Assembly: GCA_025062415.1 (NCBI GenBank)
Contig: JANXAH010000037.1
Span: forward strand, 1 to 54,873
DNA: 54,873 bases
From: Anaerolineae bacterium
Lineage (GTDB): Bacteria > Chloroflexota > Anaerolineae > B4-G1 > DUEL01
Reading direction: 5' to 3'
The notes beneath the pieces were generated by a model. That model saw nothing but the letters and a program-made list of their open reading frames with translations, did no database searches and was not told the DNA's origin. Position numbers and translations under genes: made by a program. This document shows positions 13,452-36,303 of this stretch, one piece after another; positions within the stretch are counted from its first letter, which is position 1; each line of letters opens with the position of its first letter.

Positions 13452-13627
13452 TTCCACCCCCCTTTCTTGTGGCCTGGAAATTAGTATACCACAACCCGGC
13501 CAGTTGTAAAATTTGGGGGAAATGATTTTTAGCCATAGCAGATGCATCGTTGTATTGCGTTTGGATATTTCCAGAGGTTGGTTTATAATACCTGATGAAC
13601 TATTGTGTCACCTTTCTGGAGGGAGAC

Positions 13628-14770: not shown

Positions 14771-14846
14771 GCCGTAATTGGCCTGTAACTCCTCTGTAAC
14801 CACCTCCGAGTCTGAGAACGGTAAAATCCTTAAGAAGGAGACGCGA

Positions 14847-15707
14847 ATGCCCCGGGTAGGAATTCTAACCGACACAACGGCCAGCATCCCCAAGCCACTG
14901 GTGGAGGAACTGGATATAGAACTGGTTTCCTACTATATTCACCGGGGCCTGGAAACCCTCCGGGACGAGGTGGATATAGATACCGATACGCTTGCCCAAT
15001 ACTTAGAGCGCGCGGATACGTTGCCCACCACTTCCAACCCCAGTCCGGGGGATTACCTGGTGGGCTTCCAGCGACTTCTGGAGCGTACCCGGGAAATTGT
15101 TGCCCTGACGATGACCTCTAAAGGAAGCGGAGCCTTTCAGTCCTGTCGGGCGGCGGTGGAGATCTTACGGGAGCGGGTCCCGGACCTCCGGGTTGAGGTG
15201 GTGGATACCCTGCAGGTCGCTATGGCTCACGGGTGGGCTGCCATTGAGGCGGCCCGGGCCGCCCTGGCTGGTCAGACCCTGGGGCAGGTCGCGGCTCGGG
15301 CCCGGGAGGTGGCCCGACGGGCGATGATGATCCAGACTGCCGACACGCTCCGCTACCTGCATATGGGTGGGCGTATCGGCCGTGCTCAGCATCTCGTAGG
15401 CACTCTGCTCAACATCAAGCCCATTATCGGTATGGAGGAGGGGATTATCGTTGCCCTGGGGACCGCCCGAAGCCTCCAGCGGGCCTTTACGCGCATCGTG
15501 GAGTTGATGGAGGAGCGAGTCGGCCAGGGTGCCCGGATCAAAGTGGCTTTTACACACGTCGCGGCGCTGGACCGGCTTCGGCGGCTGCGCGAGATGGTGT
15601 TAGAAGCCTTTGATTGTGTAGAAGTTCTGACTACCTCTCTCTCCCCTGCTTTGGCGGTCCATTCCGGCCCCGGAACGGTGGGGGTCTGCTTTTTCCCTAC
15701 GGACTGA
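14847..15707 (+). CDS. DegV-family fatty-acid-binding protein
   Basis: ATG 14847 follows AAGGAG. VGILTDTTASIP..., TTSNPSPGDY and LRYLHMGGRIG are DegV signatures. Confidence 0.88.
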   Translation: MPRVGILTDTTASIPKPLVEELDIELVSYYIHRGLETLRDEVDIDTDTLAQYLERADTLPTTSNPSPGDYLVGFQRLLERTREIVALTMTSKGSGAFQSCRAAVEILRERVPDLRVEVVDTLQVAMAHGWAAIEAARAALAGQTLGQVAARAREVARRAMMIQTADTLRYLHMGGRIGRAQHLVGTLLNIKPIIGMEEGIIVALGTARSLQRAFTRIVELMEERVGQGARIKVAFTHVAALDRLRRLREMVLEAFDCVEVLTTSLSPALAVHSGPGTVGVCFFPTD

Positions 15708-15797
15708 GATTCAGAGAAATATTTTCACTTGGGAACCCATATAGAAGGGGTGCGCAAATTTGAGACACACGGGTGTGTCCCAACTTTGTTCCCAGAG

Positions 15798-15825
15798 TTG
15801 ACTTGCTGGCAGTGAATAGTATAAT
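15798..15825 (+). promoter_or_regulatory. Sigma-70-like promoter (TTGACT-16 nt-TATAAT) with a ~140-nt leader before the DUF4388 gene
   Basis: TTGACT at 15798-15803 and TATAAT at 15820-15825, in a locally AT-rich 260-nt intergenic region. Confidence 0.45.
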
Positions 15826-15968
15826 CAAAGTTCAGTTGAGGCTTATAGAAACTGCGCATTCCGAAAGAAGGTCTGTTTTTACTCTGCAGCAGATGGCGGG
15901 GCGTTGCGGAGAAGGGTGAGACCAAATAATTTTATTTTTCCTTTATATCGCCGAAGGACAGACGGTTT

Positions 15969-16811
15969 ATGGCCCTGAAAGGAAATCTTCAAGATTTCAG
16001 TGCAACACAACTTCTTCACCTGATTAACCTGGCCCGAAAGACAGGAACGTTGGTCGTAGAGGCGCCGCAGCAGGAACGGGCCCGGTTGTCCTTCAAGGAG
16101 GGGAAACTCATTTACGCGTCCCTGGACGGGCAGGATGACCGCCTGGTGAGCGTCCTTCAGCGGGCTGGGAAGATCTCGGAGGAACTGGCCAGAACCATCC
16201 GGGCGCGCTCCGACATAAAAGACGACCGGGAATTAGGATTGCTCCTAATCAACGCGGGCTATGTTACCCAGAAGGACATCCTGGAGAGCGTCCGGGCCTA
16301 TGTTCTGGATATTGTCTACAAACTCTTTACCTGGCCTGAGGGGGTGTTCCGCTTTGAGCCCAACGTCCTCCCGGTAGAAGGGCGCGTGACGGTTTCCATA
16401 GACCTGGAAAATGTAATTATGGAAGGCAGCCGCCGCCTGAAAGAATGGGAGCGGCTACAGGAGGAAATCCCCAACCTGGATATGGCTCTCCGTTTCACCG
16501 ATCGCCCCGATGCCCGCCTGCGGTCCATTCAGTTGACCGTGGATGAATGGCGGGTGGTTTCGTTTATTAACCCCCGCAACACCATCCGTCAGATTGCCCA
16601 GTACAACAATATGAGCGATTTTCAGATTCGGCGCATCGTCTATGGCCTTCTCCAGGCTGGTCTTGTGGAACTAATCCCGCCGGAAGGGGTGGAGGTGAAA
16701 CCGCCGCCTGGGGCCCCTCCAGCGCCTACCGTGGTTCCTCCTATTCAGCGACGCCCAGCCGTCAAACGCAGCATCATTCAGAAACTCATAGACCGCATCC
16801 GGGAGTTGTAA
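15969..16811 (+). CDS. PATAN/DUF4388-domain protein with a DUF742-like winged-helix C-terminus
   Basis: N-terminus MALKGNLQDFSATQLLHLINLARKTGTLVVE...LSFKEGKLIYAS is the DUF4388/PATAN signature. C-terminal TVDEWRVVSFINPRNTIRQIAQYNNMSDFQIRRIVYGLLQAGLVEL resembles the conservon CvnC HTH. Confidence 0.8.
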   Translation: MALKGNLQDFSATQLLHLINLARKTGTLVVEAPQQERARLSFKEGKLIYASLDGQDDRLVSVLQRAGKISEELARTIRARSDIKDDRELGLLLINAGYVTQKDILESVRAYVLDIVYKLFTWPEGVFRFEPNVLPVEGRVTVSIDLENVIMEGSRRLKEWERLQEEIPNLDMALRFTDRPDARLRSIQLTVDEWRVVSFINPRNTIRQIAQYNNMSDFQIRRIVYGLLQAGLVELIPPEGVEVKPPPGAPPAPTVVPPIQRRPAVKRSIIQKLIDRIREL

Positions 16812-17354
16812 ATGCAGATCGTCAAAATGGTGGTCACCGGACCCTTCGCTGCAGGCAAGACGCAGTTCATCCGCACCATCAGCGAGATAGATGTCGTCGC
16901 CACCGAGGCCAAGATCACTCGTCCGGAGGAGCGGATCAAGAACGAAACCACGGTGGCGATGGATTTTGGGCGGATTACCATAGACGACGATTTGGTCCTG
17001 TATCTCTTCGGGACGCCGGGACAACGTCGGTTTGAGTTTATGTGGGAAATCCTCTCCGAGGGGATGCTGGGATTTGTTGTGATAGTGGATAGCACCCGTC
17101 CCGAGACGTTCCGGGAGGCCCGTCTGATTCTGGATACTTTTCGCTCCTATGCCCCCGTCCCATACGTGGTGGCAGCCAACAAGCAGGACCTGGAAGACGC
17201 CTGGGCGCCGGAGGATCTGCGCATTGCCCTCCGGATTGACCCAACCATCAAAGTGATTCCCTGCGTGGCAACCGACAAAGAGAGTGTGAAAAACGTCCTG
17301 CTGGAACTTCTGTACTCCATTCTGGAACTGATGGAGGAAGAAGAAGCCACATAA
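16812..17354 (+). CDS. Small Ras-like GTPase of the CvnD/MglA-related (COG2229) family
   Basis: G1 GPFAAGKT, TTVAMDFGRI, G3 LYLFGTPGQRRF and G4 NKQD closely follow the conservon CvnD pattern. TAAATG junction with the upstream gene. Confidence 0.88.
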   Translation: MQIVKMVVTGPFAAGKTQFIRTISEIDVVATEAKITRPEERIKNETTVAMDFGRITIDDDLVLYLFGTPGQRRFEFMWEILSEGMLGFVVIVDSTRPETFREARLILDTFRSYAPVPYVVAANKQDLEDAWAPEDLRIALRIDPTIKVIPCVATDKESVKNVLLELLYSILELMEEEEAT

Positions 17355-17429
17355 CCTGTAGACCCGGCGTTCCTGTTCTTCTTAAGGGCCGAGAACCCGG
17401 TGGCGACATCCGACGAGGAGAACCAGACG

Positions 17430-18215
17430 ATGAGCTCCATTGTCACCGACCGGGGAGTGATCCACTACGAGACTTTTGGACGAGGGCAGCCCGTTATTCT
17501 GCTCCATTGCTGGCTGGGTTCCTGGAACTATTGGCTCAGCACAATGGAGGCCCTGAGCGATGGTTATAAAACTTACGCCCTGGATTTTTGGGGGTTCGGA
17601 GAATCGGGGAAGCAGGGGCTGCAGTTCCGGGTCTCGGATTATGTGGAGATGGTCCATCAGTTTATGGACCAATTGGGTATCCTCAGGGCGCGGGTGATGG
17701 GACACTCCATGGGAGGAACCGTTTCCCTCGCCTTTGGCCTGGCCCACCCGACCCGGGTCCAGAAAATTGCCATCGTCGGTTCTCCCATCACGGGCGATGG
17801 CCTGGCACTGGCGCTGAAACTGGCTGCGAAGAAACCCCTTGCGGCCCTCGCCTACAACTTACCTGGCCTTCTCCCATGGGGGGTCCGTCTGGCCTCGCCC
17901 TTCCTGACCCGTGACTGGCGGCGCTGGTCCGAGATGTTTGAGCAGGACCTTTCCAAAACGACCCTGGAGTCCTTCCACTACAGCATCGCTTCTCTCCGGA
18001 AAACCGACCTGCGCCCTCGGCTCAAAGAAATCCGGGTGCCCATCCTGGGCATTTATGGTCACAACGATAGGATTGTGAATCCCAACCAGGGGGAAATCCT
18101 GGCCAGCGGGAACCCTCTGGCCCAAGTTGTCTACTTTGAGCGCTCGGGACACTTTCCAATGCTGGATGAGGAAGAGCGTTTTCACCGGACCCTGAGGGAA
18201 TTCCTGGATAGATAG
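17430..18215 (+). CDS. Alpha/beta-hydrolase (intact Ser-Asp-His triad)
   Basis: HG box ILLHCWLGS, nucleophile elbow GHSMGG (Ser codon 17706-17708), HNDRIV, SGHFPMLDE. The N-terminus MSSIVTDRGVIHYETFGRG aligns with the paralog at 28259. Alternative GTG start at 17400. Confidence 0.88.
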   Translation: MSSIVTDRGVIHYETFGRGQPVILLHCWLGSWNYWLSTMEALSDGYKTYALDFWGFGESGKQGLQFRVSDYVEMVHQFMDQLGILRARVMGHSMGGTVSLAFGLAHPTRVQKIAIVGSPITGDGLALALKLAAKKPLAALAYNLPGLLPWGVRLASPFLTRDWRRWSEMFEQDLSKTTLESFHYSIASLRKTDLRPRLKEIRVPILGIYGHNDRIVNPNQGEILASGNPLAQVVYFERSGHFPMLDEEERFHRTLREFLDR

Positions 18216-18217
18216 GT

Positions 18218-18823
18218 ATGGACGACCTCCACATCCCGAACAAGATGGGGCGCATTCTCCTTTTGGCGCTGGAGGAAATCCTGGGAGAGGATGACCTGCA
18301 GACTGTCTTGGCGCGGGCTGGCCTGCGCGATCTCAGGGATTATCCCCCCGACAACCTGGAGCGTGCCTTCCCCATCCCCTGGGTCCCCCGGCTGACGGTC
18401 GCGCTGGAGGACCTCTATGGCGTCCGGGAGGGTCGGAACCTGGCCTTTCGCGCGGGGCACGCCTGCTTCCACCTCGGCGCTCAGGACCTCTCCTTGTTCT
18501 TGGACGTCCTTCGGGTGGCCTTGCGATTACTTCCCCAAAACTTTCGTCTCCAGACGGGCCTGCAGATCCTGGCGGAAGTTTTCAATCGTTTCACCCCTCA
18601 ATCCGTTCGGGTTGAGGAGGCCGAGGGTGTCTACCGCTGGGTCGTGGAGAACTGTGGATTTTGCCTGGGGCGGGTCGCAACCGCTCCCTGTTGCCATCTT
18701 ATGGGCGGTCTCCTTCAGGCGACGCTCGCTTGGTTTGTGGGCAAGTCCGTTTCCGTGACCGAAACCACCTGCATTGCCAACGGAGCTCCTCATTGCACCC
18801 TGCAGGTTGAACCCGGGGTGTAG
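18218..18823 (+). CDS. V4R (4-vinyl reductase-like) small-ligand-binding domain protein
   Basis: C-terminal cysteine pattern ENCGFCLG...PCCHLMGGLLQATL...ETTCIANGAPHCTLQV is typical of V4R/BchJ/XylR-N domains. Starts 2 nt after the hydrolase stop. Confidence 0.75.
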   Translation: MDDLHIPNKMGRILLLALEEILGEDDLQTVLARAGLRDLRDYPPDNLERAFPIPWVPRLTVALEDLYGVREGRNLAFRAGHACFHLGAQDLSLFLDVLRVALRLLPQNFRLQTGLQILAEVFNRFTPQSVRVEEAEGVYRWVVENCGFCLGRVATAPCCHLMGGLLQATLAWFVGKSVSVTETTCIANGAPHCTLQVEPGV

Positions 18824-18825
18824 GA

Positions 18826-20106
18826 ATGCGCAAAGTTATCCTGCGAGACCGACGGTTGATTTCCCCATTCAACGAGCCTGCACGGGAACTGAGGGTCCTG
18901 AATAAACCTCTCTGGCTCCATCAGCGAGACCTTTTGGCCCCCTATGTAACCCAGGAGCGGGAAGTAGATTCTTTCAGTGAAATTGGCTCGGAACGGGTAG
19001 AGACCCTTGTCTACCGCGAGAATCTCTTCTTTGACGAGTACTTCATCCAAGACTTCATCCAGAAAGCCCGTCAGTTGGGGAAGGCTTGCCAGGTCGCTTT
19101 CCCGCTGGACGACAAGGCTATTGTCGCCCATGCCCTTCCCCTTCAGCAAACCATCCGCCGGGAGGGGAACTACTACGTGGCGGATATGTGGTACTTCCCC
19201 CACGGGATTGAGGAGACAGTTCGCCCGCTGGTGATGCACACGGAGCCCCGGGAGATGGGCTACTACCGAATCCCCACCCATATGTCCAATGTCCTGGGGG
19301 ATCTGGTCTATCAGGTTCCGACCCGCGCTTTTCTGGCGATTGAGTCCTGGGTCCATGTCCTCCTGGCGAACATCATCTTCGGCGTCTTTGCGATGGCGGC
19401 CCGGCTGGACCGGGCAATTGAGCAGAGCGTCTGGCTTCAGTTGAAACTTTTCTGGCGTGCGCTTCTGGAACAGAAGCAGGTGCTCTCTTCTTCCGCCGTC
19501 GTTAAAATCGGCAAAAACTGCTCCATTGACCCCAGCGCGATTATCCGTGGGCCAACCATTATTGGGGACAACGTAGATATTGGCCCCGGTGCGGTCATTG
19601 ATGTTTCCGTCATTGGCAACAACGTCACTATTTCCGACGGCTGCCACGTGATGCTCAGCGTGGTGAGCGACCGGTGTTTCCTGCCCTTCCGCGCCTCCCT
19701 GTTTGAGACGGTCCTAATGGAAGACACGATGGTCGCTCAGAATACCTGTCTGCAACTGGCCTGTGTGGGCCGGAGCAGTTTTATCGGCGCAGGGACTACG
19801 TTTACCGACTTCAACCTGATTCCGAAGCCGCTCCGGGTGATGCGCGGAGACAAGCTGGAGCCGACAGGAATGACTGTGCTGGGTGGGTGTGTGGGCCATC
19901 ACTGCCGCATCGGTTCCGGGATGGTCGTCTATCCGGCCCGGACGATAGAGTCCGATAGTATCCTCGTCGCTTCGCCCCGACGGCGAGTGATTATGAAGAA
20001 CGTCTCCTACGAAGAAAGCGACGTTTTCCGGATTCCGGGCGCAGCACGCCTCCATCCGCGCCTTTACCCGCGGCCGGATGAACTCAAGAGTCAGAGAGAG
20101 GAGTGA
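18826..20106 (+). CDS. Left-handed beta-helix (hexapeptide-repeat) protein with an N-terminal degenerate nucleotidyltransferase-like domain
   Basis: Hexapeptide repeats: VKIGKNCSIDPSAIIRGPTIIGDNVDIGPGAVIDVSVIGNNVTISDGCHV..., with later repeats GGCVGHHCRIGSGMVV. The N-terminal VILRDRRL lacks a GxGTR signature. Confidence 0.75.
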   Translation: MRKVILRDRRLISPFNEPARELRVLNKPLWLHQRDLLAPYVTQEREVDSFSEIGSERVETLVYRENLFFDEYFIQDFIQKARQLGKACQVAFPLDDKAIVAHALPLQQTIRREGNYYVADMWYFPHGIEETVRPLVMHTEPREMGYYRIPTHMSNVLGDLVYQVPTRAFLAIESWVHVLLANIIFGVFAMAARLDRAIEQSVWLQLKLFWRALLEQKQVLSSSAVVKIGKNCSIDPSAIIRGPTIIGDNVDIGPGAVIDVSVIGNNVTISDGCHVMLSVVSDRCFLPFRASLFETVLMEDTMVAQNTCLQLACVGRSSFIGAGTTFTDFNLIPKPLRVMRGDKLEPTGMTVLGGCVGHHCRIGSGMVVYPARTIESDSILVASPRRRVIMKNVSYEESDVFRIPGAARLHPRLYPRPDELKSQREE

Positions 20107-21179
20107 CGTTGGATTCCTTTGCCTTCATCCTCCATCCTCTGGACCCGAAGGCCGATGTGGCGCGGAAATACCCGACGCTGGCCCGGATTCTGCCTGTTGG
20201 AATGATTCATTTTCTTTCTCTCTACTGGCCGCCACTGGTCCTGGCCCACGTGCGCGGGGTCCGGTCGGAAGCGACCGGGAAAGAGGTAGAGGGATGGCTC
20301 CTGGCTTGTCCCCTCACCGCCCGGCGGATGCTTCAGGTCCCGCCGCAGGTCGCCTACCGGAAGATCATTCAGACGGGGCGGCTGGCAGAGCGATTGGGGG
20401 CCCGGATCCTGGGCCTGGGCGCATATACTTCGGTGGTGGGCGACGGAGGTCTAACGGTCGCGCAGGCCCTTCAGATTCCCGTCACTACCGGCGACAGTTA
20501 CACAGCGGCTCTCTCTGTCCAAGCGCTGCTGGAGGCCGCTGCGCAGGTGGGCATCGTTCCGGAGCGCGCTACAGCGGCCGTCGTTGGGGCCACGGGAGCT
20601 ATCGGCGGGGCTTGCGCGGGGCTTCTGGCCCCGCGTGTCCGGCGGCTCATCCTGGTCGGGCGCCGCGCGGAGGTCTTGAGAGAAGCACGACAGCGGCTCT
20701 CTGCCCTCGCCGCAGGTCCAGTAGAGGTCACTACCGACACAGCAGAGGTTCGCGCTGCCGACTTGATCCTGACAGCCACCAGTGCTGGACGCCCGATCCT
20801 GTTTCCGGAGCACCTGAAGCCAGGGGCTGTCGTCTGCGATGTGGCCCGGCCGCGGGACGTCTCCCCGCGCGTTCATCAGGAGCGGGATGATGTGCTGGTC
20901 GTGGACGGTGGCCTGGTAGAACTCCCTGGGCGGGTAAGCCTGGGGTTTAACTACGGGCTGCCGCCAGGGCTGACCTTCGGCTGCATCGCCGAGACGATCG
21001 CACTGGCCCTGGAGGGCCGGTTTGAAGACTACACTGTGGGCAAGATGCTGGACTTGGCGCGGGTACAGGAGATAGAAGAAATCGCAACTCGCCACGGTTT
21101 TCGCCCCGCGCCGCTGCACAGTTTAGACCGCCCGGTCCCTTTGGAGCGTATCCAGGCCGTCCGCGCCAGGTGGGCCTGA
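20103..21179 (+). CDS. Homolog of cyanobacterial acyl-ACP reductase (AAR; COG5322 predicted dehydrogenase family)
   Basis: Collinear by-eye match to Synechococcus AAR: FAFILHP (FGLIGHL), VVGATGAIGGACAGLL (VVGATGDIGSAVCRWL), VVDGGLVEL, FGCIAETIALALEG (FACFAEAMLLEFEG), RHGFRPAPL (RHGFQPLAL). Cys codon at 20982-20984 is residue 294. The GTG start overlaps the upstream stop (GTGA). Confidence 0.8.
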   Translation: MTLDSFAFILHPLDPKADVARKYPTLARILPVGMIHFLSLYWPPLVLAHVRGVRSEATGKEVEGWLLACPLTARRMLQVPPQVAYRKIIQTGRLAERLGARILGLGAYTSVVGDGGLTVAQALQIPVTTGDSYTAALSVQALLEAAAQVGIVPERATAAVVGATGAIGGACAGLLAPRVRRLILVGRRAEVLREARQRLSALAAGPVEVTTDTAEVRAADLILTATSAGRPILFPEHLKPGAVVCDVARPRDVSPRVHQERDDVLVVDGGLVELPGRVSLGFNYGLPPGLTFGCIAETIALALEGRFEDYTVGKMLDLARVQEIEEIATRHGFRPAPLHSLDRPVPLERIQAVRARWA

Positions 21180-21227
21180 AAGCCTGGCCGCTGCAAAGGG
21201 GTCTATCCTCTGAAAGGGGGAGGCATT

Positions 21228-22121
21228 ATGGGAAAACCGAGAATTTTGGTAGTAGAAGATGATTTTGACATCTCTAACATGCTGCGCATCTACTTTCAGA
21301 GCCAGGGGTACGAAGTGGCTGTGGCCCCGCGGGGCAGCGATGCACTGGAGATGTGTCGTCAGCAGTTGCCCAACATCGTCGTCCTGGACATTATGCTTCC
21401 GGACATAGATGGCTATGAGGTCTGCCGACAGTTGCGCAGCAACCTTCGCACCAGCCATATCCCTATTATCTTCTTAACCCAGAGGGACGAGCGGTCGGAT
21501 AAAATCCAGGGCCTGGAACTGGGGGCCGACGACTACATCACCAAGCCCTTTGACGTAGAGGAACTGCGCCTGCGGGTCAAGAACGCGATCAACCGTGCCA
21601 CCTACGAGAGTCTGACCAATCCTACCACTGGACTTCCCAGTTCCCGGCTGATAGAGGACCAGTTGCGGCGCTTACTCCAGCGGGATAATTGGGGCATCCT
21701 CTATATCGGCATTGACCGGTTGGAGGAATTTCGGGAAGTCTACGGCTTCATTGCGGCCGACGAGGTCCTTCGGCATACTGCGATGATTCTGGGGGAAGCC
21801 GTAGATGTCCTGGGAACCCCGGATGATTTCATCGGCCATGTCGGCGGAGATGACTTTCTCATCATCACCCGCAAAGACCTGGTTCGCCCAATGGCCCAGG
21901 ACCTGATCCGCCGTTTCTCCGAAGGTATCCTCACCCATTACGACTTCAAATCCCGCCAGCGCGGCTATATCGTGTTGCGGGACGAGCACGGGAATGAGCG
22001 CCAGGTTGGACTGATGGAACTGGTTATCGGTGCCATCACCAGCGATGATGGCCCCTTTACCGACATCCGGGAAATTACTGAGGCAGCAGCAGCTGCCCGT
22101 CGGGAGCGACGGTTGGTGTAA
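21228..22121 (+). CDS. Response regulator with a GGDEF-like output domain (motif GGDDF)
   Basis: RILVVEDDFDISNML...VLDIMLPDIDGYEV receiver, then TGLPSSRL...GHVGGDDFLIITR (GGDDF at 21843-21857). RBS GGGGGAGG. Confidence 0.85.
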   Translation: MGKPRILVVEDDFDISNMLRIYFQSQGYEVAVAPRGSDALEMCRQQLPNIVVLDIMLPDIDGYEVCRQLRSNLRTSHIPIIFLTQRDERSDKIQGLELGADDYITKPFDVEELRLRVKNAINRATYESLTNPTTGLPSSRLIEDQLRRLLQRDNWGILYIGIDRLEEFREVYGFIAADEVLRHTAMILGEAVDVLGTPDDFIGHVGGDDFLIITRKDLVRPMAQDLIRRFSEGILTHYDFKSRQRGYIVLRDEHGNERQVGLMELVIGAITSDDGPFTDIREITEAAAAARRERRLV

Positions 22122-22130
22122 ATTTTCCCT

Positions 22131-25100
22131 ATGGTCCTGCTGAAGCAACTGCAGAACTGGTTCAAGAGAAATCAAAAAGAGCGCAATGACATCCAAGGGA
22201 AATGTTCCACCTTCGGACAGGATGTAGCCTCCCCCTTTGCGCTGACTTTTGAAGAAATCAAAGTCCTGGAGGAGATTTCCCGGACCATCAGCGCGAGTTT
22301 GGTCCTGGAACAGACACTTCGTGACATTCTCACCTCCGCCCGCCGCCTCATTGATTTTGATATGGCGGAAATCACCCTCTGGGATCCCGCGCGGCGTTGT
22401 CTGGTCAGTCGGGGCTCTCTGGATGCGGAGACCTACCATGCAGAGGTTGGCACCGTCTATCGTCTGGACGAAGGTTATTCCGGCTGGCTGGCCCGTCACC
22501 GTCAGCCCCTCTTGATTCCCGACATCGCTACCCGCCACGACGTTCGCCCCAAACTGGACCGGCCCGATTTCCCCTTCCGCTCGTTCCTGGGGATTCCCCT
22601 GAGCGGACCGGAAGGGTTCATCGGCACGCTGGAATTGATCAGTTATCGCCCTTATGCCTTCTCCGAACGCGACCTGCTGTTGCTGCAGCGGATCGGAGAA
22701 CATGCTGCTCTGGCCATAGAGCACGCTCGGCTATACGAGGAGACACGCCGCCGGGCGCTGGAACTGAGCACCCTCGCGCGCGTTGCCACCACGGTTATCT
22801 CCACACTGGACCTCCATCAGGTTCTGGAGACAATTGCCTTCTCCGTACTGGAAGTTACCGGATGCGACGCATCTGCCATTTTCGTCTTGGATGAAGAGGC
22901 ACGCGTGCTGCGTCTGGCGGCGACCCGTGGGTTAAGTCCGGAATACATCCGTCGTTCCCAGACGCTTCCGGTGGAAATTGGTGGGCGGGGGCATGCCGTC
23001 GCGATCGGTCAAACAGTCATCGTGGAGGACCTGAATGCCAACCCGGCGATGCGCCGGATTGCTCCTTTAGCCCAGGAAGAAGGCTTTGTCGCTTTTGCGG
23101 ATATCCCTATGCGGGTTGGGGAACGGACCATCGGAATGCTGGTGACCTTCTTTGCCCAACCCCACTATTTCACGGAGAGCGAGAGGGAACTCCTCACTAC
23201 TTTTGCCGACCAGGCTGCCATCGCCATAGAGAATGCTCGCCTCTACGCTCAGACCGAATATCACCTTCACCAGCAGCAGATTGCTCTTAGCGGCCTTCAG
23301 CGGGTCGCCCGGGAACTGAGCCGGACCTTTGACCAGGAGTACATCCTTCGGCTGGTTCTGGAGGAATCGGTTCGCATTGCTCGCGCACCTCGTGGTGCAA
23401 TCCTCCTGCGCAATGAATCCACCGGAACCTGGCACCTCCTGTTCTGCACAGGCTATTTGGAAGAAGAGCAGGCGGTCCTTCGTCGGGCGCTCCAGCACCC
23501 CGAAACTGAGGAGGTTTTGACCGAACTGGAGCGGGCCGCTCAGCCCCTCTATATCCCGAGCACGGCGAAAACTGTGCTGGGCCAGGGAGACATCCGCTCT
23601 ATCTTTCTGGCTCCCATTCGCCTGGGAGAGTCCCTGGTCGGCGCCATTGCCCTATTCAGCCATCAGCCCGACGCCTTCGGGCCAGAAGTGCGCCAGTTTG
23701 TGGAGACTCTTGCCTCCCAGGCTGCCATTGCCATCGGTAACGCCCGCTGGCACCAGGAACAGCAGGAGCGGGCCTCCTTCCTCCACCGCCGCACGGATCA
23801 GTTGAGCCGTGTGCTGGAAGTCAGCCGGGCCTTCCGATCCGACCGCCCGGTAGGGGAGGTCTTAGAAGAGATCGCCTACGCTGTCCAGGAGAGCGTCGGG
23901 TTCAACAAAGTGCTCATCAGCGTCCTGGAAGGCGACCCTCCTTATCTCCGTCGGGTCGCTGCTGCTGGTATTCCTCTCGCTGCATGGGAAAACCTGAAGC
24001 GGGTCCGGCAACCCTGGAAGACGGTGGAAGCCATTTTAGACGACCGTTTCCGTGTCGGTCGGAGTTACTATATCCCGGCTGAAGAACAGACCCACTGGCG
24101 CGGTCGGGTGGATGTCTACGAGGAGCATCTGGATGCAGCGCCCCGTCAGCCCGGTCGTTGGCATCCTCAGGATCTGCTGATTGTGCCTCTCATCGGCCCC
24201 AGTGGGCAGGTTCAGGGCATCCTCTCGGTGGATGAGCCGCGGGACGGGAGGGCTCCGGACTACCCAACCATAGAGGCACTGGAGATTTTTGCCTCCCAGG
24301 CCGCGGCCGTTGTGGAGAATGCCCGGCTTCTGGAGGACCTCCAGCGCCGTCTGGACATTCTGGCAACCTTCAACGATCTGAACCGGGCCGTCACGGCCCA
24401 GTTGGACTTAGAAAGCACGCTCCAGGCTGTAGTTGATGCTGCGGCTCGCCTGCTTCAGGCCCAGGGGAGCGTGGTCTTCCTGAAGAATTCCCAGACGCAG
24501 CGCTATGAAGTCTACGCAGCTTATGGACACGACCTGACTCAACTGCGGGATTGCTCCTTCGCACCGGGCGAGGGCGTTGTGGGCGAGGTCGCCCAGAGTG
24601 GTATACCCCTGGCTCTGACCGACGCCGCACAGGCTGGCAGTGCCTGTTATATTCAGGAAGGCGCTGTTGCTCTGGCCCCGCTGACCTTCGGCAACGAGGT
24701 TGTGGGCGTCCTGACCGCCGACCGGCGAGGCGACGGTGGAGTTGTGCACCCCTTCTCCACTGCGGACCTCGCTACCCTGACGGCCCTCGCTGATCAGGTC
24801 GCCATTGCAGTCCAAAACGCTCGGCTCTATGAGGAGGCTGTCAACCGCTCTCAGGAACTCTCCATCCTTCTGGAAGCGGCCAACGCGCTTTCCTTCACCC
24901 TGGACCTGGACTGGGTGCTCTACGCTCTGGGCGAACGGCTGATGGCCCTGACCGGGGCCGATGAGTGTGTGATCTCTGAATGGAACCGGGAGACAGACGA
25001 GATCATCGTAGTATGGGATACCCGCGGGGATGCGGCTCCTTTCGCCTGTATGCTCTATAAGGCCTCGGATCGCCCTCTCATCCGGGAAGTCCTGCTCACC

Positions 25101-27812
25101 CAGGAGCCCATGGTTCTCACCCCGGAAAATCCAGACGCACGCCCTATTCTGGAGGAACGGTCGTCATCCCTCTTGCTCCTGCTTCCGATGGTTACTCGCG
25201 GGCAGACTCTCGGCCTGGTGGAACTGGAACATCGCAGCCCAGGCCGGTCCTTCTCCCCAGAAGAGATCCGGTTAGCACAGGCCCTGGCCAATCAGGCGGC
25301 GGCGGCCGTTCAGAACGCCCGTCTCTTTGAAGAGGTTCGCCGTTTCACCGAGGAACTGGAACAGCGGGTAGAGGAGCGCACCCGCGAACTGGCCCAGGCC
25401 CTGCAGGACCTGCGGGCGGAGCGGGACCGTATAGAAGCCCTCTACCGCATCGCCAGTCAGGTCTCCGCCAGCCTGGACATTGGCCAGGTCCTGCACCGGA
25501 CGCTGGAGACGGTCGCCCAGGTGACCGGGGCAGATCAGGGCTACATCTTGCTCCTGGATTCCCGGACTGATACCCTGGTCCGTCGGGCCGCAGTGGGCAT
25601 CTCCACTCCCCTTCCTGTAACTGGCCTCCCCACCCGGTTCCATCGCGGCGAAGGATTGGCGGGCTGGGTCTTGCAACATCGGCAGGCCGCCCTCATCCCG
25701 GACCTCTCTGCCGATCCCCGATGGGTTCCGGGCCCCGAAAGTGCCCACCAGAAATCCGGACTGGCAGTCCCCATTGGGGTGGCCGGGGAGATTCTGGGCG
25801 TCCTGCTCCTTTTCTCCACCCGCCCGAATTTCTTCACCGAGGATCACCTGCGGTTGGTGGAGGCCGCTGCTGCCCAGATAGCCAATGCTGTCAATAATGC
25901 CACCCTTTATGACCTCATCCGCCAGCAGGCGGAGGACCTGGGTGCGATGCTCCGGCAGCAGCAGATAGAGGCTGCCAAGATGCAGGCCATCCTGGAGGGC
26001 GTCGCCGATGGCGTCCTCTTCGCCGACGCCTCCGGACAGATCGTCCTCTTCAACGCCGCGGCAGAGCGAATTCTGGAAATCCCCCGCCGGGAGGCTCTGG
26101 GCCGAAGCATTCGGGAGATGCTGGGCCTCTACGGTGTGGAGGGCCGGAAGTGGCTGGCGACAGTGGAGGAATGGGCCGCCCATCCGGCCGACCGGACTCC
26201 GGAGGACTTCATCGCAGAGCGGCTGCAACTGGGCGACCGGGTGGTCAGCGTCCATGCGTCACCTGTCATTCGGGGGAAAGAATACCTGGGCACCGTTTCC
26301 GTCTTCCGGGACATCACGGCGGAAGTGGAAGCGGACCGGGCCAAGAGTGAATTTATCTCCACCGTCTCCCACGAGTTGCGGACCCCGATGACCTCCATCA
26401 AAGGGTATGCCGACCTCCTGGTATTGGGGATGGCGGGGCCACTGAACGAGCAGCAGAAACACTTTATTAACATCATCCGCAACAACGCGGAGCGAATGGT
26501 GGCTCTGGTCAACGACCTTCTGGACATCTCCCGGATTGAGAGTGGACGGCTGCAACTGGACCTGCGGGCCCTGCACATCCACGAGGTCGTGGATCAGGTC
26601 GTCACCGCGCTGCAGCCCCGAGCGCAGAACAAGAACCTGACCCTTACGGCGAATGTCCCCACCGATCTGCCGCCCGTCTGGGGCGACCCCAACCGCGTGG
26701 CTCAAATTCTCACCAACCTGATCAGTAACGCCATCCAGTACACTCCGCCTGGCGGACGTGTGACCGTCTCTGCACAGATCAACGGGGATATGCTGGAAAT
26801 CTCCGTCGCAGATACAGGTATTGGCATCTCCAAAGAGGATCAGAAGAAAATTTTTGACCGCTTCTTCCGGGCGAACGATCCCCTGGTCCAGGAGACACCG
26901 GGAACGGGTCTGGGGCTCCCCATTACCGCTTCGCTGGTCCAGATGCACGGGGGACAAATCTGGGTGGAGAGCGAACTGGGCGAGGGCAGTACCTTTACAT
27001 TTACCCTCCCCTTGGCGGCAACCCGCCCGCTGCCTCCCCCTGCAGCACCCCCTCGCGCCATTTCTGTCCTGGTGGTGGAGGACGACCCGGACATCGCTAA
27101 CTTGCTGCGCATCTACCTGGAGCGAGATGGACATCGGGTTCTGATTGCCTATCGGGGAGAAGAAGCCCTGCGGCTGGCCCGGGAGGTGCACCCTGGCCTG
27201 ATCACGCTGGACATTATGCTGCCCGACATAGACGGCTTCACCCTTCTGGATCAACTGAAAAAAGACCACCGGACGGCGGACATCCCGGTTGTGGTCATCT
27301 CGGTCGTTCCCGACCGGGAGAAAGGGTTCCAGTTGGGGGCTCTGGACTACCTGAACAAGCCTATAGAGGAAGATCGTCTGTTGGAGGTCGTTCGGCGGGT
27401 CCTGCACCGCCGGGGGCTTATCCTGGTCGTAGATGACGACCGGGATAACCTCTCCCTAATGCGGGAGGTCCTGCGGCGCCATGGCTTCAGCGTCCAGACG
27501 ACGGGTCAAGGGAAGAGAGCCCTGCAGATCGCCCGGGAGACTCATCCAGCGCTCATCCTTCTGGACCTGAAACTGCGGGACGTGGATGGCTATCAGGTTC
27601 TGCGCAACCTGAAATCCGACCCGCGGACGCGCGATATCCCGGTGATCATCATGAGCGGTAGTCTGACCGACGAGGAACTCAAACGGCAGCGAGCCTTCGC
27701 GATGGGAGCGGTTCAATTTCTGACCAAACCGTTCAATATTGAGGACTTTATTCGGGAGATTGCCGCCCTGGTGGAGAAACCGAAGTCCGAGGGGGCGATC
27801 CAGAGGAATTGA
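22131..27812 (+). CDS. Giant hybrid sensor histidine kinase: 7 GAF + PAS + HisKA + HATPase + 2 REC (1893 aa)
   Basis: Seven repeats each end in A(A/I)AIENARLYEE-like helices. PAS (ILEGVADGVLFADASGQIVLFN), H-box FISTVSHELRTPMTSIKGYADLL, N/G boxes (NLISNAIQYT, DTGIGI, GTGLGL), then two receivers (VLVVEDDPDI...TLDIMLPDIDG; ILVVDDDRDN...LLDLKLRDVDG). Confidence 0.92.
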   Translation: MVLLKQLQNWFKRNQKERNDIQGKCSTFGQDVASPFALTFEEIKVLEEISRTISASLVLEQTLRDILTSARRLIDFDMAEITLWDPARRCLVSRGSLDAETYHAEVGTVYRLDEGYSGWLARHRQPLLIPDIATRHDVRPKLDRPDFPFRSFLGIPLSGPEGFIGTLELISYRPYAFSERDLLLLQRIGEHAALAIEHARLYEETRRRALELSTLARVATTVISTLDLHQVLETIAFSVLEVTGCDASAIFVLDEEARVLRLAATRGLSPEYIRRSQTLPVEIGGRGHAVAIGQTVIVEDLNANPAMRRIAPLAQEEGFVAFADIPMRVGERTIGMLVTFFAQPHYFTESERELLTTFADQAAIAIENARLYAQTEYHLHQQQIALSGLQRVARELSRTFDQEYILRLVLEESVRIARAPRGAILLRNESTGTWHLLFCTGYLEEEQAVLRRALQHPETEEVLTELERAAQPLYIPSTAKTVLGQGDIRSIFLAPIRLGESLVGAIALFSHQPDAFGPEVRQFVETLASQAAIAIGNARWHQEQQERASFLHRRTDQLSRVLEVSRAFRSDRPVGEVLEEIAYAVQESVGFNKVLISVLEGDPPYLRRVAAAGIPLAAWENLKRVRQPWKTVEAILDDRFRVGRSYYIPAEEQTHWRGRVDVYEEHLDAAPRQPGRWHPQDLLIVPLIGPSGQVQGILSVDEPRDGRAPDYPTIEALEIFASQAAAVVENARLLEDLQRRLDILATFNDLNRAVTAQLDLESTLQAVVDAAARLLQAQGSVVFLKNSQTQRYEVYAAYGHDLTQLRDCSFAPGEGVVGEVAQSGIPLALTDAAQAGSACYIQEGAVALAPLTFGNEVVGVLTADRRGDGGVVHPFSTADLATLTALADQVAIAVQNARLYEEAVNRSQELSILLEAANALSFTLDLDWVLYALGERLMALTGADECVISEWNRETDEIIVVWDTRGDAAPFACMLYKASDRPLIREVLLTQEPMVLTPENPDARPILEERSSSLLLLLPMVTRGQTLGLVELEHRSPGRSFSPEEIRLAQALANQAAAAVQNARLFEEVRRFTEELEQRVEERTRELAQALQDLRAERDRIEALYRIASQVSASLDIGQVLHRTLETVAQVTGADQGYILLLDSRTDTLVRRAAVGISTPLPVTGLPTRFHRGEGLAGWVLQHRQAALIPDLSADPRWVPGPESAHQKSGLAVPIGVAGEILGVLLLFSTRPNFFTEDHLRLVEAAAAQIANAVNNATLYDLIRQQAEDLGAMLRQQQIEAAKMQAILEGVADGVLFADASGQIVLFNAAAERILEIPRREALGRSIREMLGLYGVEGRKWLATVEEWAAHPADRTPEDFIAERLQLGDRVVSVHASPVIRGKEYLGTVSVFRDITAEVEADRAKSEFISTVSHELRTPMTSIKGYADLLVLGMAGPLNEQQKHFINIIRNNAERMVALVNDLLDISRIESGRLQLDLRALHIHEVVDQVVTALQPRAQNKNLTLTANVPTDLPPVWGDPNRVAQILTNLISNAIQYTPPGGRVTVSAQINGDMLEISVADTGIGISKEDQKKIFDRFFRANDPLVQETPGTGLGLPITASLVQMHGGQIWVESELGEGSTFTFTLPLAATRPLPPPAAPPRAISVLVVEDDPDIANLLRIYLERDGHRVLIAYRGEEALRLAREVHPGLITLDIMLPDIDGFTLLDQLKKDHRTADIPVVVISVVPDREKGFQLGALDYLNKPIEEDRLLEVVRRVLHRRGLILVVDDDRDNLSLMREVLRRHGFSVQTTGQGKRALQIARETHPALILLDLKLRDVDGYQVLRNLKSDPRTRDIPVIIMSGSLTDEELKRQRAFAMGAVQFLTKPFNIEDFIREIAALVEKPKSEGAIQRN

Positions 27813-27849
27813 GATTATCGTTTGGGAAAACCCTCCTGAGGAGCGGATT

Positions 27850-28230
27850 ATGACCCGAATCCTGGTCGCCGAAGACGAACGCGACATCCGGGAATTGATT
27901 GCTTTTACCCTGCGTTTCGCCGGCTTTGACGTGATACTGGCAACCAACGGGGCTGAGGCGGTGGAACTGGCTGAAGCCAATCCACCGGACCTGATCATCC
28001 TGGACGTGCGCATGCCCAAGATGAGTGGCTATGAAGCCTGCCGCCGTCTGAAGGAAAACCCGCGCACGTCCTCTGTGCCTGTGGTTTTTCTCTCCGCAAA
28101 GGGGCAGGATTCGGAAATTCAGCAGGGGCTGGCCTCTGGGGCCGATGAATACATTCTTAAACCATTTGCCCCAGACGAACTCATTCAGCAGGTTCGGGAC
28201 ATCCTGAACCGCGCCGGCCGCAATTCCTAA
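27850..28230 (+). CDS. Single-domain response regulator (CheY-like)
   Basis: Internal ATG 27850: MTRILVAEDERDIRELI...LIILDVRMPKMSGYE...YILKPF. Confidence 0.88.
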   Translation: MTRILVAEDERDIRELIAFTLRFAGFDVILATNGAEAVELAEANPPDLIILDVRMPKMSGYEACRRLKENPRTSSVPVVFLSAKGQDSEIQQGLASGADEYILKPFAPDELIQQVRDILNRAGRNS

Positions 28231-28258
28231 TCCTTAATCCCTACTCCTTACTCCCTAT

Positions 28259-29056
28259 ATGAGCGCAATCGTCGTTGACGGCAGATTGGTCCACTACGAG
28301 GCCATTGGCCGGGGCCGCCCGGTGGTCTTTATCCACGGGTGGATCGGTTCGTGGCGCTACTGGATGGTCGCAATGGACGACCTTTCGGAGCGCTATCGCG
28401 CCTATGCCTTGGACCTCTGGGGCTTTGGGGACACAGACCGCCGTCAGGACGGGTACTCGCTGGATGCCTATATAGAGTTGGTGGAACGTTTCTTGGACGA
28501 ACTGGGACTCCGGAAAGTGGCTTTGGTTGGGCATGGCCTGGGAGGTGCTATTGCTATCCGCCTGGCGGCCAGTTTGCCCGAACGGGTGGACCGGCTGGCT
28601 GCTGTCTGCACCCCTCTGACAGGGGCCGCCATTGCACCGCCTCTTGCGACCTTTACCAATCACTATAACGGCGACTGGGTAGCCCGAATTTTGGGCCGTC
28701 GTCAGGCCTCCGCCTATCCGGAGGTCCTGATGGAAGCCAACAAGGCCGACCTTCGCGCCGTCGTCGGAGGGATTCAGGGCCTCCTGCGGGAGGACCTGCG
28801 GTCTACCGTGGAGAACCTCACGATTCCGGTCCTGCTCCTCTACGGCAAAAACGACTCTCTGGTTTACCCGCCCGATGAACGATGGCTGCGGCAACTGGAG
28901 GAGAACATCTATTACTTCCACCTGGAAGAGTCCGCCCACTTCCCCATGCTGGACGAAGCCAACCGCTTTACCCGGCTGCTTCGTCAGTTCCTGGCCCTGG
29001 GGACTGAACTGGAAACGCTGGAACTGCGAGACGAGTGGCGAAGGCGGGTCCGTTAA
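28259..29056 (+). CDS. Alpha/beta-hydrolase paralog with Gly at the nucleophile position (GHGLGG)
   Basis: Collinear with the 17430 gene: MSAIVVDGRLVHYEAIGRG, FIHGWIGSWRYW, KNDSLV, SAHFPMLDE. Codon 93 is GGC (28535-28537) where the paralog has TCC (Ser). No obvious SD upstream. Confidence 0.85.
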   Translation: MSAIVVDGRLVHYEAIGRGRPVVFIHGWIGSWRYWMVAMDDLSERYRAYALDLWGFGDTDRRQDGYSLDAYIELVERFLDELGLRKVALVGHGLGGAIAIRLAASLPERVDRLAAVCTPLTGAAIAPPLATFTNHYNGDWVARILGRRQASAYPEVLMEANKADLRAVVGGIQGLLREDLRSTVENLTIPVLLLYGKNDSLVYPPDERWLRQLEENIYYFHLEESAHFPMLDEANRFTRLLRQFLALGTELETLELRDEWRRRVR

Positions 29057-29063
29057 ATGAGCA

Positions 29064-29099
29064 AAGGGGGCAGGCAATCAATTGATTGCCTGCCCCCTT
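29064..29099. terminator. 36-nt perfect palindrome between convergent genes (bidirectional terminator)
   Basis: aagggggcaggcaatcaa|ttgattgcctgccccctt, exact reverse-complement halves, lying between the stops at 29056 (+) and 29144 (-). Confidence 0.8.
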
Positions 29100-29143
29100 C
29101 GCATTCGGCCCAGCTTCCCGCAGCAGCCCAGGGAATTCCTGGT

Positions 29144-29599
29144 CTACGAGGAAAGGCCGCTCAGCAGTTCCCGAACCACTTCGTTGACGATTCGTCCATC
29201 GGCGCGCCCCTTCATCCGAGGCATCAGGGCTTTCATCACGGTGCCCATATCCCTTGGCCCCGTCGCGCCGACTTCCGCAATCACTGCCCGAGCCTCTGCC
29301 GCGATTTCCTCGCGCGTCAGCATGCGGGGAAGGTAGGACTCCAGAATAGATAGTTCGGCCTCTTCATCGGCCAGCCGGTCCGTCCGATCGGTGCCGCGGA
29401 GTTCCTCTACCGTCTCCTGCCTCCGACGGATCTCTTTCTGGAGAACGCTGATCACTCCAGCTTCGTCCAGTTCACCGCCGTGGTCCGCCTCGGCCAGTTG
29501 AATAGCGGCAAGTGTCATCCGGATAACGGCCTTCCGCCGCTCATCCCTGGCTCGCAGGGCTTCTTTCAGGTCTTCCTGGAGGCGTGTTTTCAGGTCCAT
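29144..29599 (-). CDS. yqeY: GatB/YqeY-domain protein
   Basis: MDLKTRLQEDLKEALRARDERRKAVIRMTLAAIQ...GPRDMGTVMKALMPRMKGRADGRIVNEVVRELL is typical of YqeY. Follows rpsU as in Firmicutes. Confidence 0.88.
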   Translation of the reverse strand: MDLKTRLQEDLKEALRARDERRKAVIRMTLAAIQLAEADHGGELDEAGVISVLQKEIRRRQETVEELRGTDRTDRLADEEAELSILESYLPRMLTREEIAAEARAVIAEVGATGPRDMGTVMKALMPRMKGRADGRIVNEVVRELLSGLSS

Positions 29600-33742: not shown

Positions 33743-33790
33743 CCACCCCGTGCCCAGGCCGAGGGCTAACCCAGCGGTTTCGTAGAGAAC

Positions 33791-33833
33791 GAGGGGGATT
33801 TGCGGCGGCCCCGAGCCGCCGCAAATCCCCCTC
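33791..33833. terminator. 18-19-bp hairpin downstream of rny (GAGGGGGA-TTT-GCGGCGGC ... GCCGCCGC-AAA-TCCCCCTC)
   Basis: Direct reading: gagggggatttgcggcgg / ccgccgcaaatccccctc are exact complements. Located 40 nt after the rny stop on the minus strand. Confidence 0.75.
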
Positions 33834-33872
33834 GCACCCCCCCAGGAGGGAAAGCGTAGCGCAAACCGACGA

Positions 33873-36049: not shown

Positions 36050-36061
36050 TGGCCCCCCTTT

Positions 36062-36256: not shown

Positions 36257-36303
36257 GAAATGCACCACACCGTGGCGAGGGCAGATCCGCAAACGGACCC
36301 CCC

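Follow-up and report, generated by a model that had tools for sequence, protein, structure and literature searches.

The subject of this analysis is a block of ten co-directional open reading frames (ORFs) on the + strand, from 15969 to 29056, in contig JANXAH010000037.1 of an Anaerolineae bacterium. All positions are given in the numbering of the whole 54,873-nucleotide (nt) stretch that was analysed, hereafter the window, and the ten genes are referred to as g1 to g10 in their order along the strand. Their products comprise a PATAN protein, a small GTPase, two proteins of the alpha/beta-hydrolase fold, a V4R protein, a protein with a left-handed beta-helix (LbH), a reductase-like protein and three phosphorelay proteins (Table 1). 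An earlier reading made from the letters alone (the sequence-only reading) had reported ten same-strand genes with junctions of 0, 75, 2, 2, -4, 48, 9, 37 and 28 nt from g1 to g10; the ORF coordinates reproduced these nine values exactly, and Pfam confirmed every domain call in the order that it gave. The ATG starts of g3 (17430) and g9 (27850) agree with the conserved N-termini of their orthologues.

One genome per GTDB species was scanned, and relatives of g5 were found to be encoded in 515 species-level genomes. Synteny was checked in the 80 best of these g5-bearing genomes, in which all ten window products were mapped by tblastn. The order and strand of g1-g10 were kept in nearly all of the 80 loci, and among the 46 loci with enough flanking sequence on both sides, 41 had all ten genes in order. 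The five exceptions were three loci without g6 only, one with a longer kinase gene that pushed g9 and g10 beyond the end of the fetched sequence, and one that was rearranged. Conserved adjacency, the main check on the sequence-only reading, therefore came out clearly positive. The nearest g5 loci were those of an Anaerolineae metagenome-assembled genome (MAG) at 96% identity and of Thermoflexales MAGs at 91%, by which the window belongs within or close to Thermoflexales; orthologues of g5 were 62–96% identical overall. More than 120 clusters (90% identity grouping) were 65–96% identical to g5, and wherever the cluster source names gave a taxon, it was Anaerolineae, Anaerolineales or Chloroflexota; the record titles of the 80 best loci likewise all name Anaerolineae, Thermoflexales or Chloroflexota. 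The array was intact in a metagenome contig whose g5 was just 51% identical, and gene order and strand held while the identity of the V4R and PATAN proteins dropped to 29–57%. The block is a vertically inherited unit of Anaerolineae and related Chloroflexota and, because intact copies occur in hundreds of Anaerolineae species, the ten genes almost certainly form one working unit.

Junction lengths in the relatives are approximate, as the gene starts there were placed by aligning the proteins of the window: the g1-g2 junction was at most 10 nt in 93% of loci, the estimated g5-g6 junction was at most 10 nt in 62%, and the g2-g3 gap had a median of ~144 nt. Clustering of the flank ORFs revealed no universal flanking gene beyond g1-g10. 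A RecN-like ORF, recognised by its N-terminal sequence with no profile test, was located upstream in 35 of 61 loci, and two ORFs taken on visual inspection for HMG-CoA synthase and reductase flanked 22 of the 61.

The composition of the block varied in a few loci. The g6 gene was absent from 5 of the 80 loci with the remainder of the array kept (L059, L066, L072, L076 and L078), and L066 additionally had no kinase gene in place. A Thermoflexus MAG (L077) was without V4R and everything after g6. In a reduced variant (L088 7193-12088, JGI 3300075934), a 530-amino acid (aa) homologue of g5 (46% identical) was followed by just two genes, one REC-GGDEF-like and the other for a GAF-rich protein; upstream there was a gene for a low-molecular-weight phosphatase, and the PATAN, GTPase, hydrolase, V4R and reductase genes were missing. 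Given that L088 keeps this trio and that loci without g6 exist, g5-g7-g8 was the most persistent linkage seen. Since these genes adjoin in L088 without g1-g4 and g6, their linkage suggests that g5 works directly with the relay.

Table 1. Coordinates of the ten genes, their boundary features and the surrounding features in the window
Feature	Position	Strand	Description and evidence
g1	15969..16811	+	PATAN (DUF4388) with C-terminal MarR-like winged helix; PF14332, 4.4e-30
g2	16812..17354	+	small Ras-like GTPase, MglA family; ATP_bind_1, Ras and Arf matches (Pfam)
g3	17430..18215	+	alpha/beta-hydrolase, intact Ser-His-Asp triad; Abhydrolase_1, 9.3e-32
g4	18218..18823	+	V4R protein with Cys cluster; PF02830, 4.5e-12
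g5	18826..20106	+	predicted nucleotidyltransferase-like N-domain and LbH; Hexapep/LbH Pfam, AF2, Foldseek
g6	20103..21179	+	AAR/PigE-N-type NAD(P)H thioester reductase (plausible); Shikimate_DH-like Pfam; 4-nt overlap with g5
g7	21228..22121	+	REC and divergent GGDEF-like domain; REC 1.2e-30, GGDEF 1.1e-9
g8	22131..27812	+	1893-aa cytoplasmic hybrid histidine kinase; 7 GAF, PAS, HisKA, HATPase_c, REC, REC
g9	27850..28230	+	single-domain CheY-like receiver; REC 2.9e-31
g10	28259..29056	+	alpha/beta-hydrolase fold, predicted dead paralogue of g3; Abhydrolase_1, 3.9e-28
Promoter-like site	15798..15825	+	TTGACT-16 nt-TATAAT; 11/12 consensus positions matched
Palindrome	29064..29099	.	perfect 36-nt palindrome AAGGGGGCAGGCAATCAATTGATTGCCTGCCCCCTT, between convergent g10 and YqeY-like gene
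YqeY-like gene	29144-29599	-	convergent with g10
REC and CpaE/ParA-like ATPase gene	13595-14770	+	upstream of block
DegV (fatty-acid-binding family) gene	14778-15707	+	directly upstream of block
RecA, RecX, RNase Y, Wzy_C-type O-antigen ligase-like gene	32345-37626	-	housekeeping neighbourhood
FMN riboswitch	43819-44002	+	RF00050, 101 bits, E 2.5e-22; only Rfam match in window

Signalling and enzyme-like proteins of the block

The PATAN domain of g1 scored 104.7 bits in Pfam against a cut-off of 25. MarR_2 matches were found at the C-terminus in 16 of 27 orthologues, and a profile of the orthologues matched the MarR-family structure 7kua (E 0.0024). The stop of g1 abuts the start of g2, the PDB matches of which were an Arf GTPase entry and MglA. 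In g2 the P-loop is intact (G1, GPFxxGKT), G3 is GTPGQ in 71 of 71 orthologues, G4 is NKQD in 70 of 71, and G2 has Thr-Thr without Arg, with ETTVAMDFG conserved. In MglA Groups 2–5, G3 is GTPGQ and a Thr replaces the intrinsic Arg finger in G2 (PMC4316618). As the GTPGQ G3 and the Thr-Thr G2 agree with these criteria of Wuichet and Sogaard-Andersen, g2 is by its motifs a GTPase of the MglA Groups 2–5 type; by its NKQD G4 it is not of Group 2 (CvnD). The label 'conservon-like' that the sequence-only reading had given to this switch did not hold, because no Roadblock/LC7 or DUF742 Pfam match was found among the ten products and G4 reads NKQD instead of NxFD. An MglB/Roadblock partner for g2 was likewise found neither in the block nor among the scanned genes of the window.

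Three products carry receiver domains. In g7, the GGDEF match scored 38.7 bits against a cut-off of 23.8 and covered only profile positions 5–90 of 161. The motif read GGDDF in 60 and GGDEF in 3 of 74 orthologues; LPSxR stands in place of LPNR, so that the substrate-binding Asn is replaced by Ser, a Phe replaces a conserved His of the GGDEF domain, and no RxxD I-site was present in g7, which has TPDD in its place. The phospho-acceptor Asp motif VLDIML was found in 71 of the 74 orthologues. The 'c-di-GMP-like output' of the sequence-only reading is put in question by the GGDDF motif, the Asn-to-Ser exchange and the missing I-site, and canonical synthesis of cyclic di-GMP (c-di-GMP) by g7 is doubtful on these motifs.

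For the 1893-aa g8, Pfam supported the 7xGAF-PAS-HK-REC-REC architecture of the sequence-only reading. The kinase core matched VicK/HK853-type structures at ~1e-50, and the H-box SHELRTP, HATPase_c and the Asp residues of both REC domains are present, by which g8 is predicted to be a catalytically intact multi-GAF hybrid histidine kinase. The PDB matches of the GAF domains were generic (PtsP, DevS and Nlh GAF domains). Light or bilin sensing and cyclic nucleotide binding by the GAF array were rejected as candidates, as neither Cys-His nor an NKFDE motif was found. The length of the kinase gene varies: g9 is offset from g5 by ~5.6–10.4 kb in the 80 loci (L001-L080) where the kinase is present. 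This wide variation implies that GAF domains were gained and lost between species. The receiver g9 has its DVRMP Asp motif conserved in 59 of 59 orthologues. Pfam gave no Hpt domain in the ten products, and none of the ten proteins has a transmembrane segment. A reading of the block as anti-phage defence was also rejected, with PADLOC giving only generic REC-to-REC matches.

Among the enzyme-like proteins, g6 matched the N-terminal region of the PigE model NF053554 at 4.5e-65 and the AAR model TIGR04058 at 4.5e-25, in the latter case with 88.7 bits, which does not reach the equivalog cut-off of 449.7. Its PDB matches were 4ppm (2.7e-40) and 6jzq (1.8e-20). The acyl-accepting catalytic Cys is C294 in AAR and C296 in PigE (PMC8341465). 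In g6, the Cys of the [FY][GA]C..E motif (FGCIAET in the window) was kept in all listed orthologue variants and sits in a GC(I/M)AETI(A/V)LALE stretch aligned with PigE; the GxxGxxG motif is also conserved. Because of its PigE/AAR homology and the retention of both the catalytic Cys and GxxGxxG, g6 is plausibly an NAD(P)H-dependent thioester reductase. The earlier call of an AAR-like reductase was right in the homology to AAR, although the protein is nearer to the N-terminal thioester reductase of PigE. No Ald_deCOase (ADO) Pfam match was found within the block, and profile searches assigned the middle genes to no characterised pathway, in agreement with the sequence-only reading.

The two hydrolase-fold proteins differ at the nucleophile. 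The g3 elbow, GHSMGG, has its Ser in 73 of 73 orthologues, and the His and Asp of the triad are retained as well. The elbow of g10 in the window is GHGLGG; of 57 orthologues, 35 have Gly at the nucleophile position, 21 have Ala and 1 has Ser, and the His is kept. Since Gly or Ala occupies this position in 56 of the 57, as the Gly seen earlier in the window had indicated, and since g10 is 30–39% identical to the g3-position gene of orthologous loci, g10 appears to be a conserved dead paralogue of g3. The top PDB matches of g3 were generic esterases and C-C hydrolases and those of the two proteins together also included epoxide hydrolases; both match BchO weakly. An RsbQ/D14-like identity of g3 or g10 was rejected, as neither RsbQ nor D14 was among the 60 best PDB matches listed.

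The V4R domain of g4 scored 46.3 bits against a cut-off of 31, and the full-length protein matched BchJ weakly (TIGR02019, 2.6e-4). The cysteines of its CxxC...C...C(x7)C pattern are mostly conserved in orthologues. V4R is related to TRAPP Bet3/TRAPPC3, V4R and TRAPPC3 proteins possess ligand cavities, and PoxR/TRAPPC3-like proteins provide a precedent for a Zn site in a Cys cluster (PMC10933270).

No Pfam match was obtained for residues 1–225 of g5, and the family of this N-domain amounts to 170 clusters among 1.84 billion representative proteins. In a PDB profile search only the LbH domain of g5 was matched, by that of GlmU. We modelled g5 with AlphaFold2 (AF2) from a diverse 40-sequence alignment, at a predicted local distance difference test score (pLDDT) of 83.7; a model from a shallow alignment (11 sequences, at least 65% identity) had a pLDDT of 43.5 and was discarded. 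The best Foldseek matches of the retained model were ST0452 of Sulfolobus (E ~1e-11), GMPPB/VTC1, GlmU, CobY, RmlA and eIF2B; the entries matched included 5z0a (E 9.6e-12) and 2ggo (1.5e-9) besides those of GlmU. Because ST0452, GMPPB/VTC1, GlmU and eIF2B were its best PDB matches, the predicted fold of g5 is GlmU/ST0452-like, a sugar-1-phosphate nucleotidyltransferase-like domain followed by an LbH. The LbH protein of the LpxA/LpxD type in the sequence-only reading was therefore correct as to the LbH domain but not as to the type. The GxGTR loop of GlmU appears to be missing from g5, where the N-terminus reads ILRDRRLISPF (loop RDRRLIS). In an hhalign profile alignment with Escherichia coli GlmU, which is indicative only, the invariant Q305 of g5 aligned with the catalytic H363. 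Enzymes of the GlmU/ST0452 type have non-catalytic relatives, GMPPA and eIF2B gamma/epsilon. The g5 protein may thus catalyse through another active site or, by analogy with these relatives, be a regulatory pseudo-enzyme.

Distant full-length homologues of g5 were 25–41% identical and had varied genomic contexts. One was found beside AMP-binding, acyl-CoA dehydrogenase, NAD_binding_4 and MMPL genes, another beside ADO-like, ACP-ketosynthase, PKS and AMP-binding genes, and further contexts contained cupin, cyclase-like and radical-SAM genes. Judged from these gene annotations, acyl-thioester chemistry with a reductase recurs around distant g5 homologues and is not the sole theme. In another locus (L089 239-4872, JGI 3300027985), the distant homologue P0273 (28% identity to g5 for its cluster representative, P0265) lies between an NAD_binding_4-type reductase and a HisKA_7TM kinase. 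This trio parallels g6-g5-g8, with the reductase from a different Pfam family and the kinase of a seven-transmembrane (7TM) architecture. In addition, the giant proteins P0140 (3077 aa) and P0268 (1712 aa) match g5 at residues ~142–178 in 28 and 6 stretches, respectively, which suggests a short repeat unit common to these proteins and the g5 N-domain.

Boundaries and surroundings of the block

The near-consensus promoter claimed upstream of g1 was upheld by its match to consensus and by its conservation: hexamers TTGACTTG...GGTATAAT recurred in 10 of 11 related loci. As the intergenic DNA around them was unalignable, this conservation points to a real promoter at 15798-15825. The leader between this site and g1 (15826-15968, ~140 nt) exceeds that of the nearest relatives by ~80 nt; in these, the -10 box and the g1 start codon are ~40–60 nt apart. 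A riboswitch in the leader was rejected, with no Rfam match within the block.

Both the perfect 36-nt palindrome downstream of g10 and the lack of a strong internal hairpin, as previously reported, were borne out. Throughout 15700-29200, no other inverted repeat has arms of 14 nt or longer within 40 nt, and internal terminator-like matches were about as frequent as chance predicts (18, against 15.9 ± 4.1 for shuffled sequence). A folding energy of -49 kcal/mol was obtained for the 90 nt that follow the g10 stop. Hairpins downstream of the blocks of relatives vary, with 32 of 54 at or below -25 kcal/mol. Since the palindrome has no U-tract and is positioned between convergent genes, we infer its role from this setting, in which it is probably a bidirectional terminator. 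The possibility that it is a repeated element was rejected, as its half-site was found nowhere else in the window. The ten genes are probably expressed as one transcript or as two (g1-g2 and g3-g10).

The REC-CpaE-like and DegV genes upstream of the block are probably unrelated neighbours, because other genomes do not have them in synteny with the block. SmpB, UvrD and DNA polymerase III delta' genes were found at the 5' end of the window, and + strand ORFs follow the FMN riboswitch from 44166. The housekeeping genes around the block are consistent with a chromosomal rather than a mobile location.

Possible workings of the block

We favour, at a probability of roughly 0.4, a tentative reading in which the block encodes a circuit of phosphorelay and GTPase, located in the cytoplasm and coupled to a module for the handling of an acyl-derived small molecule. 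The products of g3 and g6, with that of g5, would convert an acyl thioester (acyl-ACP or acyl-CoA) to an aldehyde-type or modified hydrophobic product. This product or its precursor pool would be bound by the V4R protein, the dead hydrolase and/or the GAF domains, and would thereby set the activity of the kinase. Output would pass through the receivers of the phosphorelay and through the pair of the GTPase and the PATAN-winged helix protein, by protein-protein contacts or by transcription, and would not be by canonical c-di-GMP synthesis. The kept catalytic Cys of g6 and the acyl-thioester genes beside distant g5 relatives speak indirectly for acyl chemistry. Several observations weigh on the other side. 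The absence of g6 from 5 of the 80 loci indicates that the reductase is dispensable in some lineages, and the GAF domains of g8 carry no recognisable ligand signature. Because the GxGTR loop and, by one alignment, the GlmU catalytic His are lacking in g5, this protein may serve as a scaffold without catalytic activity. The acyl theme is also not exclusive, as some distant g5 homologues adjoin glycosyltransferase or radical-SAM genes, and the long g2-g3 gap in the relatives makes two transcription units possible.

A bolder form of the acyl-linked circuit would make the block an intracellular 'hormone' circuit, complete in itself and peculiar to Anaerolineae, which makes its own acyl- or aldehyde-derived ligand. 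Together, the V4R protein, the dead hydrolase and the pseudo-enzyme of GlmU fold would then act as a ligand-gated substitute for a guanine nucleotide exchange factor or GTPase-activating protein on the Roadblock-less MglA-type GTPase, paralleling TRAPP-Rab. The TRAPP Bet3 subunit of eukaryotes has reportedly been proposed to descend from the V4R family. We regard this form as speculative and quite improbable.

The enzyme-like genes could instead be the regulated output of the block, that is, lipid, glycolipid or envelope remodelling tuned post-translationally by the relay and the GTPase, which we consider somewhat unlikely. In support of such remodelling, g3 and g6 keep their catalytic residues, g5 is 62–96% identical, as for a core enzyme, and distant g5 homologues lie beside GT2 glycosyltransferases and phosphodiesterases, beside GT2 and LPG_synthase_TM genes, and in PKS/ACP and MMPL/ACAD contexts. 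However, all ten proteins are without membrane segments, genes for transporters, glycosyltransferases or carrier proteins are absent from the conserved block, signalling proteins account for six of the ten genes, and g6 has been lost without loss of the remaining genes. The catalytically competent look of g3 and g6 also counts against another, distinctly unlikely explanation, in which the block is a control module for polarity, pili or cell division. Here PATAN and the MglA-type GTPase would, under phosphorelay control, target either a pilus or secretion ATPase or the divisome of these filamentous bacteria, and the nucleotidyltransferase-LbH protein, the dead hydrolase and V4R would be mainly non-catalytic adaptors, of which V4R could replace MglB/Roadblock. 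Such a module would agree with the Group 2–5 signatures of g2 and the lack of a Roadblock partner in the block, with the missing catalytic signatures of g5 and g10, and with the relationship of V4R to TRAPP Bet3/TRAPPC3. Some MglA Group 1 and 5 genes adjoin PATAN genes (PMC4316618), and the PATAN output domain binds PilB1 and PilC in Synechocystis (bioRxiv 10.1101/2021.06.11.447907). On the other hand, the conserved block contains no pilus, secretion or division gene, the REC-CpaE-like gene upstream of the block in the window is not syntenic elsewhere, and g1 bears a winged helix rather than REC and so is not a PatA-type regulator.

Two further explanations concern the origin of the block. Shared descent in a narrow clade could have preserved the order of genes without a common function, as the Chloroflexota/Anaerolineae-type titles of all 80 inspected loci and the length of some junctions would allow. 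This is very improbable because the flanks were replaced repeatedly while the block was not; moreover, order and strand persist at 29–57% identity of V4R and PATAN, the array is intact at 51% identity of g5, g1-g2 is tight and g5-g6 close in most loci, and the promoter leaves a conservation footprint. Membership of the actinobacterial conservon family (CvnA-D), to which the GTPGQ G3 shared with MglA Groups 2–5 (CvnD included) and the co-encoded sensor kinase might point, has a practically negligible chance of being correct: it is refuted by the absence of CvnB and CvnC, no Roadblock/LC7 or DUF742 match being found among the ten proteins, and by a G4 of NKQD instead of the Group 2 NxFD, and response regulators are present where the conservon has none.

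Comparison with known systems

A full-text literature search found no description of the ten-gene system, in line with the suggestion of the sequence-only reading that no described system has this composition, and for V4R combined with TRAPP, or PATAN combined with MglA, only general background papers came up. The sole trace was an appendix neighbour list for Anaerolinea thermolimosa, in which, unannotated, the DUF4388, GTPase, hydrolase and GlmU-like genes GAP05454-GAP05458 are listed beside nirS (cytochrome cd1 nitrite reductase) (PMC8756737). In this species the block may be interrupted or truncated after g5. The block thus stands as an apparently undescribed His-Asp and small-GTPase signalling operon with an unprecedented accessory set. 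We did not find its module types, namely a GAF-array phosphorelay, a Roadblock-less pair of PATAN and MglA-type GTPase, a thioester reductase, a GlmU-fold protein and a dead hydrolase, described together. The filamentous Anaerolineae abound in sediments, hot springs and wastewater sludge, and to our knowledge almost nothing is known of their signalling. If the enzymes do make the ligand that is read by the circuit, the block would be a new autoregulatory small-molecule system and would provide the first functional handle on PATAN, V4R and the small nucleotidyltransferase-LbH family. The proteins of the block are soluble and short enough for direct biochemistry.

By homology, as judged from the sequences, the closest known systems are MglA Groups 2–5 with the conservon, the PatA-type regulators, AAR and PigE, and GlmU and ST0452, and the block has the defining gene set of none of them. 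In the conservon, the GTPase CvnD (MglA Group 2) has NxFD in G4 and the neighbours CvnB (Roadblock) and CvnC (DUF742), the kinase CvnA has a C-terminal LPxR extension, no response regulator is present, and the GTPase is thought to be the signalling output switch (PMC4316618). The two systems share an MglA-family GTPase (GTPGQ, Thr-Thr G2) encoded beside a sensor kinase. They differ in the PATAN-winged helix partner, the receivers, the enzyme-like genes and the Chloroflexota host found here, and in the lack of CvnB and CvnC. In its REC content g8 also departs from CvnA, as it ends in two REC domains and is accompanied by two separate REC proteins (LPxR was not searched).

With PatA, PixG and PixE, the block shares a PATAN domain well above the Pfam threshold in a signalling operon with CheY-like receivers. 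The PATAN output domain that PatA-type regulators carry binds the type IV pilus motor (bioRxiv 10.1101/2021.06.11.447907). However, g1 is not a PatA-type regulator because no REC domain is fused to its PATAN domain; a MarR-like winged helix follows instead, the gene is tightly coupled to that of a GTPase, and no pilus genes are present in the block. The resemblance to AAR-ADO and the PigE N-terminal region lies in the full-length homology of g6, with its acyl-accepting Cys and NAD(P) motif, and in the tight coupling of g6 to the adjacent gene, as would be expected for product channelling. Here, in contrast, there is no ADO and no aminotransferase partner, the neighbour is a nucleotidyltransferase-LbH protein, and the scores are far below the equivalog cut-offs. 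GlmU and ST0452 have the two-domain architecture of nucleotidyltransferase and LbH that g5 shares in its predicted fold and, for the LbH, in sequence; in g5, however, the GxGTR loop and the catalytic His are apparently replaced, the N-domain is invisible to Pfam and the family is small.

Hydrolase-fold proteins also take part in signalling in RsbQ-RsbP and in D14/KAI2/GID1. D14 and RsbQ keep the nucleophile that is lost in g10. The weak matches of g3 and g10 to BchO and of g4 to BchJ form a further likeness, and nothing in the block indicates a link to phototrophy or tetrapyrroles. The closest systems in logic, by analogy, are the rpf/diffusible signal factor (DSF) cluster of Xanthomonas and LuxCDE. 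The former combines RpfF, RpfB, RpfC and RpfG, with an acyl-derived signal, a hybrid kinase, and a REC and c-di-GMP enzyme, and in the latter LuxD (an alpha/beta-hydrolase) and LuxC (an acyl reductase) yield an aldehyde. The likeness to the present block involves no homology beyond generic folds, and the block differs from both in that its kinase is cytoplasmic with a GAF array, its GGDEF domain is degenerate, and a pair of GTPase and PATAN proteins is added.

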